DNA of 64,000 bases. Origin: an uncultured Chthonomonadaceae bacterium (GTDB lineage Bacteria > Armatimonadota > Chthonomonadetes > Chthonomonadales > Chthonomonadaceae). This document shows, one piece after another, positions 49,659 to 55,397 of the stretch. The stretch is taken from positions 1-64,000 of the forward strand of contig CAWIEK010000037.1 of the NCBI GenBank assembly GCA_963835065.1. The letters are read 5' to 3'. The notes under the pieces were generated by a model, which saw only the letters and a list, made by a program, of their open reading frames with translations, had not been told where the DNA came from and did not search any database. How positions within the stretch are numbered: the first letter of the stretch is position 1; each line of letters opens with the position of its first letter. The translations under genes and the position numbers were made by a program.

Positions 49659-49699
49659 CTCAAAAACTCCTTACCATCCGCCACCAACAGCAGGAGGGG

Positions 49700-49893
49700 G
49701 AACCGCGAAACACGCGAACCAAAACGAAAAAAGGAAAAACAAAAAGAACCGCAAAGAGGCAAAAGAGGGCAAAGAGGAGAAGTCACTTCGCCGGAGTTGG
49801 TTGGCGCTTTCCCTGCTATTTTTGGTTCTTTTTTCGTTTACTTCGCGTGTTTCGCGGTTCCCTCTCCTGCCTTCTCTGCTTCTTTGCGGTTCC
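49700..49893. repeat. Interleaved 9-nt-period inverted repeats in the reductase leader
   Basis: GAACCGCGAAACACGCGAA...TTCGCGTGTTTCGCGGTTC and GAACCGCAAAGA...TCTTTGCGGTTC. Confidence 0.8.
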
Positions 49894-50013: not shown

Positions 50014-50042
50014 TTGACAAGCCCTGACCGGAAAGGTACACT
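50014..50042 (+). promoter_or_regulatory. sigma70 promoter of the tRNA
   Basis: TTGACA-N17-TACACT. Confidence 0.8.
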
Positions 50043-50061: not shown

Positions 50062-50414
50062 GGGCCCATAGCTCAATGGCAGAGCGCCCGGCTCAAGATA
50101 GTTTCTCTAAATTCAGGCCGTTAATACCTGAACATGAGGGACTGAAGAGGGCCTCTACCGTCGAAAGTCGGTAGATGTAACCTGTCAAATTCGGGGAAGC
50201 CTATGTTGTTCCCAATACGGTAATCCCGAGCCAAGCGCGTTTAGCACAGGAAAACTGTTGTAAGCGCGAAGGTGTAGAGACTCGACGGCAGGCATCCTTG
50301 TTTCACAAAACAGTGGATGAAGAGAGAGTCCAGACTGCAAACCCGAAAGGGGCGGCGAAAGCCGTAGCGGTACGCATAACTGGTTGGTTGTAGGTTCGAC
50401 TCCTGCTGGGCCCA
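50062..50414 (+). tRNA. tRNA(CAU), most likely tRNA-Ile2; exons 50062-50093 and 50375-50414; CCA not encoded
   Basis: Spliced GGGCCCATAGCTCAATGGCAGAGCGCCCGGCT|CATAACTGGTTGGTTGTAGGTTCGACTCCTGCTGGGCCCA; G1-C72, C4-G69, C5-G68. Confidence 0.92.
50094..50374 (+). ncRNA. Group I self-splicing intron (IC3-like), 281 nt, no ORF
   Basis: 5' exon ends in U and intron ends in G; IGS GGCCG (50116-50120); P AAATTCGGGGAA, Q AATCCCGAGCCAAG, R GTAGAGACTCGA, S AAGAGAGAGTCC; GAAA tetraloops. Confidence 0.95.
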
Positions 50415-50466: not shown

Positions 50467-50657
50467 CTGTAATCCCTGATAAGTAAGTATATCCTGCGCA
50501 GGCACAAATAGAAAGCCCGCTTGTCAGGGCAAGGGTGAAACTGCTATAATGTAGTGGCAGGCTGACTTGTAGGATATTCCTATGTGTCGGCTCAAATTTA
50601 TCGAGTATAATTTTGGCAGCGACTTTCCGCAACCCGCGCGCCGGCAGGAGGTTAAAA

Positions 50658-50948
50658 GTGGTGACAGTAATGACTTACATCGGCAAGGTTCAGGAGAATG
50701 GAACGGTTATCGTGTCGAAAGACGCACAGGAACAGTTGGGATTGCAGCCGGGCGATGAAGTGCGGGTAAGCCTGAATCGCAGCGTTGTAGAACCGCAGCC
50801 TGTCACGCCCAATGAAAAAGCGCTGGCGGCTCTGCGCAGGGTTGCCGCATTACAAGAGGGAATGCGCTGCACGGATGGTTCGCACACGAACGAAATTATT
50901 CATGAAGGCCGCGACGGAGGAATGTACAGTGACGAATGCGCCGAGTAG
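50658..50948 (+). CDS. AbrB/MazE-like antitoxin (VapB)
   Basis: KVQENGTVIVSKDAQEQLGLQPGDEV. Confidence 0.85.
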   Translation: MVTVMTYIGKVQENGTVIVSKDAQEQLGLQPGDEVRVSLNRSVVEPQPVTPNEKALAALRRVAALQEGMRCTDGSHTNEIIHEGRDGGMYSDECAE

Positions 50949-51414
50949 CCCTCTTCCGGGCGCGGTAATTGTAGACGCCAACATTGCCGTTGCGATTGCT
51001 GCAAAGGAGACGGGGCGTGAGGCGTTAGCAACGGCGGAACTTAGCAGTTATGCTGCACAAGGGTATGAATGGTACGCGCCCGGAGCAATCACAACAGAAA
51101 CTCTTTATGCGCTGTGCCAAAAGTTTCATGCCGGACTGCTCACATTGGTGGAGTACGAAAAAGCGATCAGCAGTCTGGAAGCGTTGATAAGCAGTCTTTT
51201 GCCGCCTCCTGATGGTGACAGCGCCCTGATTCATCGCGCCTATGACATTGCGAAAAGTTATGGCTGCAGCCGTTCTGCGGATGCTGTCTATATTGCATTA
51301 GCAGAGGAGTTGGCTAAAACGCGGACAACCGTGCTGCTGACGTTCGATCAAGACCTTCCTAAACAAGCGGCCAAACACGCGCCGACAGTAACCGCGCGAT
51401 TGTTGACAATATAG
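50929..51414 (+). CDS. PIN-domain toxin (VapC)
   Basis: VIVDANIAV...E...ADAVYIALAE...LLTFDQ. Confidence 0.85.
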   Translation: MTNAPSSPLPGAVIVDANIAVAIAAKETGREALATAELSSYAAQGYEWYAPGAITTETLYALCQKFHAGLLTLVEYEKAISSLEALISSLLPPPDGDSALIHRAYDIAKSYGCSRSADAVYIALAEELAKTRTTVLLTFDQDLPKQAAKHAPTVTARLLTI

Positions 51415-51456
51415 TATCGGCGCTATCTGCTACAGTATAGAGGATAAGAGGATTTC

Positions 51457-52707
51457 ATGGCGCGTTCGGTTCGCGTGATGCACTTTGCCGATACCCATTT
51501 CGGCGTGGAATTGTATGGGCGGCTGGACCCGGATACCGGCCTGAATTCCCGATTAAAGGATTTCAAGCAGTCGCTGCTGAAGGCCATTGACCTGGCATTG
51601 GAAGCCGAGATTGATCTGGCGGTCTTTGCCGGGGATGCGTACAAAACCCGTGACCCGCGCCAGACCGATCAGCGCGAATTTGCGGATTGTATTCGACGGT
51701 TGACGACCAACAACATTCCCGTCGTGATGATCGCGGGCAACCACGACATGCCGGCGGTGCGCGGGCGCGCGAACGCGGTGGAGATTTACCATACGCTGGG
51801 CGTGGAAAACGTGCATGTGCTGCGCAAGCCGGAAACCCTTCTGGTGCATACCCGCGCCGGGCAGGTTCGCGTGGCCGCGATGCCGTACCTGATTAAAGGC
51901 TACTCCGTTGCCCGCGACGAGTTTCAGAACAAGACCATTGATGAAACCCGCCTCCTGCTGGAACAAAAGTACGCCGACTATCTGCAATTGCTTGCCGATG
52001 AAGTGCGCGAAGCCAACGACGCGATACCCACGATTCTGCTTGGACACTTTTGGGCGAATGGCGCGAAACTGTCCACCTGGCAGGAGGGCTATTTTACGAT
52101 GGGCGAGCCGAAGGTGGCGCTTGCCAGCCTGACCGACCCTGCTTTCGATTACGTCGCGCTTGGGCATATTCACAAGCATCAGGACTTGAATAAGAACGGC
52201 CAGCCGCATGTCGTGTATTCCGGCAGCCCGGACCGCATTGATTTTGGCGAAAAGGACGAGCGCAAGGGCTTTGTGCTGGTAGACTTGTATAAGGGCGGCG
52301 CGGATTACAAGTTTATCCCCGTAGACGAGGGGCGCGAACTGCTTGAAATCGAAGTGGATTGCGAGGGCGACGAGCCGACCGAAAAAATCATTGCCGAAGT
52401 TAAGAAACACGCGCTGCGCAACAACATCGTCAAGCTGACCTACAAAATTGACCATGCCAAACTGCCGCAAATCCGCGAACGCGACATCCGCGATGCCCTC
52501 GCTCCCGCTTTTATGGTGGTTTCCATCAACCGCAAGGTGCAGCGCCAGGATCGGGAACGGGGCCGCGCCTTCACGGAAAGCATCAGCCCCCGCGAAGCCC
52601 TGAACCTGTTCATAGACGCCAACGACAAACTCAAGCCCCGCAAAGACGACCTTCTCACCTACGCCGAACCGCTGTTTAAGGAGTTGGCGGAGGAGGAAGG
52701 ATACTGA
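51457..52707 (+). CDS. sbcD: Exonuclease SbcCD subunit D
   Basis: HFADTHFG, AGDAY, AGNHD, DYVALGHIH, YSGS..RIDFGE. Confidence 0.93.
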   Translation: MARSVRVMHFADTHFGVELYGRLDPDTGLNSRLKDFKQSLLKAIDLALEAEIDLAVFAGDAYKTRDPRQTDQREFADCIRRLTTNNIPVVMIAGNHDMPAVRGRANAVEIYHTLGVENVHVLRKPETLLVHTRAGQVRVAAMPYLIKGYSVARDEFQNKTIDETRLLLEQKYADYLQLLADEVREANDAIPTILLGHFWANGAKLSTWQEGYFTMGEPKVALASLTDPAFDYVALGHIHKHQDLNKNGQPHVVYSGSPDRIDFGEKDERKGFVLVDLYKGGADYKFIPVDEGRELLEIEVDCEGDEPTEKIIAEVKKHALRNNIVKLTYKIDHAKLPQIRERDIRDALAPAFMVVSINRKVQRQDRERGRAFTESISPREALNLFIDANDKLKPRKDDLLTYAEPLFKELAEEEGY

Positions 52708-52711
52708 GGAG

Positions 52712-52831
52712 AGTAGTCAGTAGCCAGTAGTCAGTAGTCAGTAGAACGTCTCTATTGGCAGCCGTGTGCAAACATGCAACACAGAGAAAACAGCATTTCT
52801 ACTGGCTACTGACTACTGGCTACTGACTACT
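52712..52831. repeat. Inverted heptamer repeat (AGTAGTC)5...(GACTACT)5 between sbcD and sbcC
   Basis: 35-bp arms 52712-52746 and 52797-52831 with one mismatch. Confidence 0.92.
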
Positions 52832-52837
52832 TCTATT

Positions 52838-55397
52838 ATGATTCCTACCAAACTGACCCTGAAAAACTTCATGAGCTATGGAGCCGAGCCGGTGACGCTG
52901 CCGTTTGAGGGGCTGCATGTCGCCTGCCTGTCGGGGGACAACGGCAACGGCAAGTCCGCCATTCTGGACGCGATTACGTGGGCGCTGTGGGACAAAACAC
53001 GCGCCCCAAGCAAGGATGACGTGATTCGCGTGGGCGCGGACGAAGTAGAGGTTCAGTTCGAGTTTGACCTGAATGAGCAGCATTACCGCGTGATTAAGAA
53101 GCGGCGGCGGGGCAAGGCGACGGGCAGCGAGTGGCAGCTTGCGCAGCGCGACAGCCTGGGCAATTATACGCCTGTCGGCGGCAGCAATCAGCGCGAAGTG
53201 GGCAGGCAGATCGTGCAGCTGCTGAGTATGGAGTACGAGACGTTTCTCAATTCCGCGTATTTGCAGCAGGGCCATGCCGATGAGTTTACGCGGCAATCGC
53301 CCGACAAGCGCAAGCAGATTTTGGGCGAGATTTTGGGATTGGAGCGTTATGCGCGCTTAGAAGAAAAAGCGCGCGAACGCATGAAGGAGCGCAAGGAAGC
53401 CGTCGAAGAACTGGAAATGCAGATACGGCTGCTCGAACTCGGAAGTCGCCAATTTGCCTTCGTATGAAGAGCAGTTAGAGCAGACGCGGCTGCGATTGGG
53501 CGAAACGGCATCGCTTGTGGAAAAGCAGGAGGCTGTCACCACGAACCTGCGCGAACGCAAGGCGCAACTGGACGCGCTTGCCGGGCAGGTGGAGCAGGCG
53601 CGGGGTGTTGTGCAGCGCATTGTGGAAGACATCAAACTGCGCGAGGCCGAGCGGTGCAATCAGCTTGCGCAGTTGGAAAAGCTGCAAAAAACAGTTGCGC
53701 AGAAGGAAGCCATTGCAGGCGATTACGCCCAATTGCAAAACGCTTACAAGCGGCGCGATATTTTGGAGCCGGAAATTGAAGCGTTCAACAAGGCCAACAA
53801 GGATTTAAGCACGGTCATCGGCACAATTGACGGCCTGGAAAAAGAACTGCGCGGCGAAATCCGCCTGTTTGAAAACAAAGCGCAGACAGCCGAGGAGCGG
53901 AACCGGGAACGCGCCAAGCTGGAAACGCAGATTGCCACGCTGCGCGACGGCCTGACAGACAGCAAGAGCGTGGAAGCCGAACTCGCCCGCGTCCTTATTC
54001 TGCAGGAAGAAACGCAGCAATCTTTTGCCGACCTGAGCGCGCGCAATAAGGAATTGACAGCCGCGCTTGCCGAACTGGACGAAGTGTTGGAACTGCTGAA
54101 AGGGCCTCACGCTTCCTGCCCGGTTTGCGAAAGCGATTTGAGCGGCAAAAAGCACGAGGCGGTACTGGCGCGGCAGCAGGCCAAGAAAACGCAGATGCAG
54201 CAGGAGCAGAAACAGGTTCGGCAGGACGGCGCGGCGAAAAAGCAATCTCTGACGCAGGTTCAGGAGCAGGCCGCAATGCTGACAAAGCAGCGCGACGAGC
54301 AGACCGCCCGCGCCAATCGTCTGCGCGACCTGACCGCCCGACTGGAAACTTATGCGCAAGCCGCGTCGGAACTGGAAGCCGCGCGTAAGAACCTGAGCGT
54401 CCTGCAAACGCGGCTGAATACGAACGATTACGCGGCTCCGCAGCGCCTGCAGCGGCAACGCCTGGAGCGCGAACTGGATCGGCTGAAACTGGCGCGTCAG
54501 GAATACGAAGTTGTAAGACAGCAAATTACGCGCCTGGAGCCCAGCAGCAAGCGTATCCATGAACTGCAGCAGGCGGAAGACGCCTTGCCGCAAGCCCTTG
54601 CGGAAAAAGCGCGGCTGGAACAAGTCCTAATCGGCAAAAACAAGGAACGGCAGGAAGCGGAAGACCGTCGAAACCAATTACAAGAGCGGTTGGGACAGTA
54701 CGAGGAAATCAAGCGGCAGGCGGCGGTTGCGGAAGCGGATTTTGCCCGGCTGCGAGAGGAATTCAATAGCCTGAAAATTAGGGAAGGCAGTTTTGTTAAG
54801 TATATTGCTGACTGCGCGGGCGCGGCCATTCAGAAAAAAGACCGGGAAAAGGAACGCGCCAAAGCCGATGATGAGAAACGGCTGTACACCGCGCTGGCAA
54901 ATGCGTTCGGCAGAAAAGGCGTACAGGCGCTGATTATCGAAAACGCCATTCCCGAATTGCAGGACGAAGCCAATACGCTTCTGGCGCGGATTACCGATAA
55001 TGCCATGCAGGTGATGTTCCATACCACCAAAATCCTGAAATCGTCCAAAGAAGAAGCGGAAACGCTGGACATTGAAGTAATGGACGACCTGGGTTCGCGC
55101 CCGTATGAAATGTTCAGCGGGGGCGAAGCGTTCCGCGTCAATTTCGCCATTCGCATTGCCCTGTCGCGCCTGCTGGCCCGTCGTTCGGGGGCGCGTCTGC
55201 AAACCCTGATACTGGACGAAGGTTTCGGCTCACAGGACGGCAAAGGACGCGAAAAATTAATCGAAGCGATAGACGGCATCAAGGAAGATTTCGAGAAAAT
55301 CTTAGTCATTACGCACGTGGACGAGCTAAAAGATGCGTTCTCGCAGCGTATTGAAGTGACAAAAGACGCCAACGGCTCCCACATTCACGTCATGTAG
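52838..55397 (+). CDS. sbcC: SMC-like ATPase SbcC (1-nt frameshift near 53440)
   Basis: LKNFMSY, GDNGNGKS, zinc hook CPVC, FSGGE, LILDEGFG, VITH. Confidence 0.93.

Follow-up and report, generated by a model that had tools for sequence, protein, structure and literature searches.

Few interruptions of a gene raise as many questions as an insert inside the anticodon loop of a transfer RNA: what the insert is and exactly where it lies, which tRNA it splits, whether the reading of a codon hangs on its removal, and where it came from. The window analysed here, a stretch of 64,000 nucleotides from an uncultured Chthonomonadaceae bacterium, holds such a gene at positions 50062-50414 of the plus strand, split by an intron of 281 nt (50094-50374). 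The reading that we favour, at a probability of about 85%, is that a group I intron, expected from its structure to splice itself out, sits at U33/C34 in the one CAU gene of Ile2 type in this genome, and that it likely is a copy, stripped of the homing-endonuclease gene, from a mobile family of Ile2-site introns that is widespread.

Group I splicing proceeds through a U.G pair in P1, attack by a free guanosine and ligation at a terminal guanosine, omega-G (Williams 2020, bioRxiv 10.1101/2020.01.27.920355; PMC13168695, available part). A group I intron had been proposed for this locus from the letters of the sequence, and RF00028 bears this out, matching 50134-50355 over model positions 1-253 with 70.1 bits (E 9.4e-16), where the gathering score is 50. 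Three registers of the insert were compared, all of which give an identical spliced tRNA because CA is repeated at the start of the insert and of the 3' exon. The cut between U33 and C34, together with the terminal G that had been claimed for it, is the sole register that provides both U(-1) and omega-G; the registers 34/35 and 35/36 lack them and were rejected. Omega-G is G50374, which is invariant in alignment A1, where the scan pattern itself required a G. The joined exons form a cloverleaf of 72 nt with the anticodon CAU, and the parts of the locus are these:

50014-50042, plus strand: sigma-70-type promoter-like site, 10 of 12 matches to the consensus (the consensus match being its evidence), 20 nt upstream of the tRNA
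50062-50093, plus strand: 5' exon of tRNA-Ile2(CAU), G1 to U33, identical to the intronless genes at loci L011 and L012
50094-50374, plus strand: group I intron of 281 nt without an endonuclease gene (RF00028, register, aligned pairs, tblastn)
50099-50144, plus strand: hairpin in the P1 loop, its internal loop presumably resembling an 11-nt GNRA-tetraloop receptor; the place of an antisense HNH gene in relatives (fold, aligned pairs)
50116-50120, plus strand: GGCCG, the guide of the original prediction, at most a decoy pairing (not conserved)
50149-50153, plus strand: internal guide sequence GGGCC; G50150 wobbles with U33 (50093) and G50149 pairs with intron position +1 (fold, alignment)
50155-50174, plus strand: P2 hairpin with a GAAA-type loop, 5 of 6 pairs changed on both sides
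50181-50331, plus strand: catalytic core P3-P8 (RF00028, aligned pairs)
50277-50283 with 50326-50331, plus strand: P7, in which a bulged A50278 precedes G50279-C50330 (aligned pairs)
50334-50374, plus strand: P9-region helices with two GAAA loops, ending in omega-G at 50374 (register, aligned pairs)
50375-50414, plus strand: 3' exon, C34 to A73, CCA not encoded (cloverleaf, intronless relatives)

The intron had been described as free of open reading frames, and tblastn found no endonuclease homologue inside it. It had also been expected that standard annotation would miss the gene. ARAGORN in its default mode indeed found no tRNA in the window and, with introns allowed, named the split gene Leu(CAA), while tRNAscan-SE 2.0, according to the available part of PMC8450103, is not designed for detecting tRNA genes split by group I introns. 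Since default tools miss or misname the gene, genomes of this kind look as if they had no Ile2.

The identity of the host follows from the body of the tRNA. Its acceptor stem reads G1-C72, G2-C71, G3-C70, C4-G69, C5-G68, C6-G67 and A7-U66, followed by A73, and the marks of an initiator are absent, as seen in G1-C72, C11-G24 and an anticodon stem CCCGG/CUGGU in place of GGG/CCC. In the available part of PMC1635315, A11-U24 is given as a mark of fMet, G3 and C70 as discriminating against Met and fMet, and C4-G69/C5-G68 as a combination that occurs very often in Ile(CAT) and is needed by the TilS of E. coli; the Ile2 determinants are not universal there, and the call between Met and Ile2 requires a profile comparison. 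With G3-C70 rather than C3-G70, C4-G69 and C5-G68, the host is best assigned by its sequence to Ile2, in line with the claim that it is not fMet, and the genome carries a separate intronless fMet and a separate elongator-type Met with C3-G70, both on contig C45. A tilS gene is present as well (TIGR02432, 178.5 bits against 93.6). A search by blastn-short found no second full copy of either exon, which fits a sole Ile2 gene; the assembly of the window's own genome (G000) is 91.9% complete, so a second one could be missing. Relaxed ARAGORN gave three further CAT calls, two noise-like by eye and one a possible pseudogene with C3-G70, all set aside along with a spurious-looking intron-allowing CAT call on C3. 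A sub-threshold CAU tRNA on the minus strand of C51 (118996-119066), an ARAGORN possible pseudogene with C3-G70 and an initiator-like look, lies between tRNA-Ile(GAU) and tRNA-Ala(UGC) in the spacer past the end of a 16S gene.

The guide sequence is where the original prediction has to be corrected. It had taken GGCCG (50116-50120) as the internal guide, which we reject: over 16 Ile2-site introns this pairing is formed in 47.3% of 55 cells, in a loop region that aligns poorly, and the fold buries half of GGCCG in a hairpin stem, whereas P1 formed with GGGCC at 50149-50153 is paired in 97.5% of cells, with U33.G in all 16 aligned introns. Whether a 116-nt piece or the whole precursor is folded, the minimum-energy structure contains the 50149-50153 pairing, and a GGY(Y) guide lies 34-37 nt before P3 in most Ile2-site introns. 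As a decoy, GGCCG makes five contiguous pairs with the exon and could compete with P1.

The pairing table covers 16 of the 21 short Ile2-site introns, two duplicates and loci L042, L119 and L143 being omitted. The 67-pair structure is paired in 93.7% of 1063 cells and 35 of the 67 pairs are changed on both sides, no shuffle out of 500 reaching this level and slid controls giving 37-47%; these statistics lean toward the structure because it was drawn on the window's sequence and because related sequences can beat shuffles. P3 and P7 are paired throughout (100%), the closing pair of P7 being CG in 8, AU in 6 and GC in 2 introns, and G50279-C50330 would by analogy be the guanosine-binding pair. 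The precursor fold has a z of -4.67, with none of 100 shuffles equally stable. Inspection places P2, finds P5 short and makes out no P10 pairing of more than one base. The P1 loop spans 54 nt and is filled by the hairpin, whose outer stem is poorly aligned (63.9% paired). Its internal loop contains what we take to be a likeness of the 11-nt GNRA-tetraloop receptor motif; a loose pattern for the 5' half of the receptor occurs in 23 of 32 Ile2-site and 7 of 76 fMet-site introns, and the hairpin may have a docking role. The invariant core positions and helices are all intact, so that the intron looks sound and is predicted from its structure to be competent for splicing.

The following course of events would be consistent with this architecture. 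The end of the 5' exon would pair with the guide at 50149-50153, U33 wobbling with G50150; a free guanosine bound at P7 would cleave after U33; omega-G 50374 would then fill the same site, and U33 would attack the bond between G and C34, joining the anticodon loop. TilS could then turn C34 into lysidine, giving charging with isoleucine and the reading of AUA. With C34 opening the 3' exon, the intron should have to be spliced out before lysidine can form.

Such a requirement is not new, as splicing must also precede anticodon maturation for the intron of the Azoarcus BH72 tRNA-Ile(CAU), the Ile2.5Ug class, which shares with the window's intron the isotype and the form of a compact anticodon-loop ribozyme without an open reading frame. 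The two differ in site, 36/37 in Azoarcus and 33/34 here, where shifts of +3 or more fail to restore the anticodon loop, and in size: 205 nt in Azoarcus (PMC13168695, available part) against 281 nt, with a P1 loop of 54 nt and branching in the P9 region, in the window. Leu.3Ug, Arg.5Ug, fMet.2Ug and Ile2.5Ug are the four classical tRNA classes, all IC3, and Williams 2020 (bioRxiv 10.1101/2020.01.27.920355) counted 21 host/site cases, 17 of them new, without listing the new ones in the text. By its numbering of sites from 0 to 7, the window's gene would be Ile2.2Ug: Ile2 host, site 2, U(-1) and omega-G. That name occurs zero times in the text of Williams 2020, of which Table 1 and Fig. 3 are images and to which the supplement is external, and the text, which says of gene content only that genes may be present in introns longer than about 400 bp, mentions neither an HNH gene nor a hairpin in the P1 loop. 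The pair of host and site is nevertheless very probably already catalogued there, an estimate that rests on the size of the class and on the method of Williams 2020. Our literature search, whose coverage leaves most subscription journals outside, found no paper naming an Ile2 intron at 33/34, and the available part of PMC3984707 adds nothing on this site. Group I introns in the tRNAs of Patescibacteria have reportedly been surveyed recently.

The combination of Ile2 with 33/34 had been put forward as one not recognised before, and this does not hold. A pattern scan of GTDB, for a core followed by G|CAUAA, gave at least 120 loci, the total being estimated at about 1300 stretches; as the pattern required the G|CAUAA site, the scan informs on 33/34 only. 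In silico splicing produced a CAU tRNA at 33/34 in 102 of the 120 loci among the matches listed. Of the 18 left uncalled, 16 fall among the 40 listed loci with short flanks, which hide long introns. The 102 called among the matches listed divide into 75 of the fMet type and 27 non-initiators, after three mis-sorted rows had been reassigned to fMet by eye. Among these matches, every one of the 27 non-initiator hosts has G3 or A3 and 16 show C4-C5; nine named phyla are represented, led by Chloroflexota (8), Saccharimonadota (5) and Armatimonadota (4). In IMG/VR, 14 of 16 matches could be called, and 13 of the 14 lie in non-initiator tRNAs, Ile2 and Met pooled. Roughly one in four of the 33/34 CAU introns sampled is of the Ile2 type, and the window's copy is a real and fairly ordinary member of a widespread, probably catalogued class.

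Closer to home, the intron is patchy. A DNA search covering 60 related genomes gave matches in 33 of the 36 from the same family and in none of the 24 from two other families. The intron sits at the same junction of the same tRNA in G001, G002, G011, G015, G021 and G024; G019 matched solely through a related intron in its fMet gene; and the other 26 matched as two exon halves, with all 22 loci that were read having an uninterrupted gene with this junction, two of which match the window's spliced exon in every base, and the remaining four intronless by coordinates only. Thus, where an Ile2 gene was recovered, the intron is present in 6 of 32 other genomes, or in 7 of 33 with the window's counted, and the exon of G001 shows a few changes. 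One genome (G017, contig C212, locus L157) has a second, 5'-truncated Ile2 copy, like the remnant of an element integrating at this tRNA. A locus labelled Janthinobacterium (L127) has an Ile2 tRNA and an intron that group with Armatimonadota copies, by misbinning or transfer.

The relatives hold what the window has apparently lost. In G001, of the same genus, and in G011 the introns are 641 and 630 nt long and carry in the P1 loop an antisense open reading frame of about 123-128 codons. The two proteins, 63% identical, match HNH families of PHROGs (E 1.4e-20 and 8.2e-18) and HNH-named clusters of the ESM Atlas at 0.96-0.97, have 329 relatives at E <= 0.001 and gave no match above the cut-off in Pfam. 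By tblastn against 110 introns, this HNH occurs in 13 of 34 Ile2-site rows, these being all the rows over 500 nt, with every gene antisense and about three of the 13 broken, and in none of the 76 fMet-site rows. The fMet-site rows have a sense PD-(D/E)XK gene (PF11645) instead, in 22 of 76, with none in the 34 Ile2-site rows; two long fMet-site introns (L081, 730 nt; L105, 722 nt) match neither family. The fMet intron of Synechocystis encodes such a PD-(D/E)XK enzyme, I-Ssp6803I (PMC1995217, available part).

It is likely that the window's copy has lost its HNH. Read in antisense, the start of its intron gives LNLEKLS-stop against LNLENLL-stop in G011, which fits a deletion of the gene and may instead reflect a conserved RNA stem. 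The stop, formed by U33 and the first two intron bases, recurs in all 34 Ile2-site rows; we discount it as evidence of gene descent, given that +1 is constrained by P1 and that some fMet-site introns start with CA. The window's genome has four free-standing relatives of the HNH, 41-48% identical over 56-77 aa and three of them beside tRNA genes, located by tblastn:

contig C11, 127654-128283: free-standing HNH relative
contig C27, 2351-2851: free-standing HNH relative
contig C29, 11250-11750: free-standing HNH relative
contig C33, 3-467: free-standing HNH relative

One of them lies between tRNA-Arg(CCU) and tRNA-Ser(CGA), and two others, nearly identical and each interrupted by an in-frame stop, reach into the opening bases of tRNA-Thr(UGU) and end there. 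On contig C44 (22763-23191) the PD-(D/E)XK gene of fMet introns has a weak homologue (E 7e-4), whose end falls immediately ahead of tRNA-Pro(GGG).

Under the proposed mechanism, the Ile2-site family would spread by homing through a Zn-ribbon HNH encoded on the opposite strand of the P1 loop, and deletion of the HNH in the window's lineage would have left the flanking hairpin; with the HNH gone, the window's copy would now be inherited vertically. A more specific picture, which we offer tentatively and at somewhat less than even odds, is that the window's intron represents an as yet undescribed family of 33/34 tRNA-Ile2 introns in its endonuclease-deleted form; these introns would home by this antisense HNH, captured from free-standing HNH genes next to tRNAs, and the last HNH codons would double as the tetraloop-receptor-like hairpin, kept for structure after the loss of the gene. 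No description of an antisense HNH in Ile2-site introns was found in the literature search, most subscription journals being outside its coverage. This less ordinary feature is one of the relatives and lies outside the window. G001, with its HNH, and its congeners without one, the window and G002, form a natural pair for endonuclease loss and for the role of the leftover hairpin.

Where the intron came from is bound up with its fMet-site counterparts. The window's intron resembles fMet.2Ug of Synechocystis PCC 6803, the class of I-Ssp6803I, in its site at 33/34, its GGCU^CAUAAC context and a related core, and the endonuclease gene of the fMet-site matches found here is likewise near the 5' end of the intron. 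It differs in its host, Ile2 and not the initiator, the genome's own fMet on C45 being intronless, and in the endonuclease: sense PD-(D/E)XK in fMet.2Ug (PMC1995217, available part), antisense HNH in the Ile2-site family, and no open reading frame in the window's copy. The cores of Ile2-site and fMet-site introns are up to 76.5% identical, and the two kinds of intron are related. The original prediction of an fMet-site intron moved into Ile2 was right about this kinship, seen in site, context and core; a recent jump is disfavoured by the clustering of the Ile2-site introns, weakly supported as it is, and by their own HNH.

The tree comprises 107 cores with a single Leu outgroup, two duplicates, L057 and L143 being omitted, and its bootstrap had not fully settled. 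The Ile2 label needs one change on it against a mean of 27.2 for shuffled labels; the monophyly of Ile2-site introns has a support of 33/0 and is recovered in 37% of bootstrap trees. Together with those of G001 and G002 (100/94), the window's intron falls inside a group of ten introns at the Ile2 site (98/98), apart from the fMet intron of the same family at L010; named Armatimonadota records lie in the clade of the window's intron, which makes this the probable phylum of the host. The best surviving alternative, an unlikely one, is that an fMet-site intron was retargeted to tRNA-Ile2 recently, in the window's lineage, through the shared context GGCU^CAUAAC. The identity of the site and of ten bases around it would allow this, G019 and G011 of the same family have related fMet-site introns, the Ile2 cluster of the free tree lies among fMet rows, and a topology that unites the family's Ile2 introns with the fMet intron of G019 is not rejected by the AU test (p = 0.155). 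Against a recent retargeting, the ten nearest cores to that of the window all belong to Ile2-site introns, several of them from other phyla, the Ile2 label takes a single change, and the endonuclease families exclude each other between the two sites. An ancient move, in either direction, may have taken place, as fMet monophyly is not rejected (AU test, p = 0.077) and the root rests on one Leu intron. Two intron lineages that share one insertion context and carry unrelated endonucleases make a testable case of homing specificity dividing isoacceptors. Introns without an open reading frame at 33/34 of tRNA-fMet occur in the same family at L010 (G019) and L156/L175 (G011), and in G011 an fMet-site intron exists alongside an Ile2-site intron that bears the HNH.

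Whether AUA decoding depends on the ribozyme, as had been suggested, is a separate matter. In a crude set of open reading frames that includes non-genes, AUA makes up 7,776 of 66,264 Ile codons and occurs in 2,572 of 2,926 long frames. The genome also has a gene for tRNA-Ile(UAU), with G4-C69 and G1.U72, in a tRNA array on C49, and its presence weakens strict dependence of AUA on splicing; a 92%-identical match exists in G001, and none was found in four of the five intron-bearing relatives searched, which are 79-97% complete. The dependence on splicing is plausible and, on account of this gene, weakened. The array counts 16 genes (C49, 430274-432286; L154), and a related one in G001 (L158) counts at least 20, including a CAT tRNA without a match in G000. 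It would be a further step, and a very improbable one, to suppose that the intron is inactive or misfolded, that the Ile2 gene is effectively dead and that the reading of AUA falls to the tRNA-Ile(UAU) of the array. The array tRNA and its copy in the congener G001, the decoy guide GGCCG and the few changes in the exon of G001 could all be fitted to such a view; the intact core positions and helices, an exon identical to intronless orthologues, the retention of a promoter-like site and of tilS, the lack of a UAU match in those four relatives, and the G4-C69 and G1.U72 of the UAU tRNA go against it.

Hardly any weight falls on the remaining possibility, that the host is an elongator tRNA-Met and its intron of a Met-site class unrelated to AUA decoding, for while ARAGORN calls the host Met from its anticodon and the separation of Met from Ile2 requires profile comparison, G3-C70 discriminates against Met and fMet and C4-G69/C5-G68 is typical of Ile(CAT) (all three in PMC1635315, available part), an elongator-type tRNA with C3-G70 exists separately on C45, and the acceptor stem equals that of the genome's Ile(GAU) at pairs 1-4 and 7, with an alignment score of 24 against 11 for Met, the only E. 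coli blastn matches, six at E = 2 to annotated tRNA-Ile, being uninformative.

The host is thus best kept as Ile2, and its surroundings add a few observations. Elsewhere in the genome, a second group I intron of 227 nt (contig C9, 116923-117230; L002; RF00028, 53.4 bits) lies in tRNA-Leu(UAA). In the window itself, a long imperfect inverted repeat at 49690-49872, with a purine-rich and then a pyrimidine-rich arm by eye, precedes an open reading frame at 49658-48285. A site with 12 of 12 matches to the sigma-70 consensus at 49971-49942 of the minus strand is directed away from the tRNA and faces a 457-aa open reading frame that by eye looks like a nitrite/sulfite reductase. Downstream of the tRNA, at 50613-55397 of the plus strand, the open reading frames resemble by eye an AbrB-type and PIN-domain pair followed by SbcD/SbcC-like genes.
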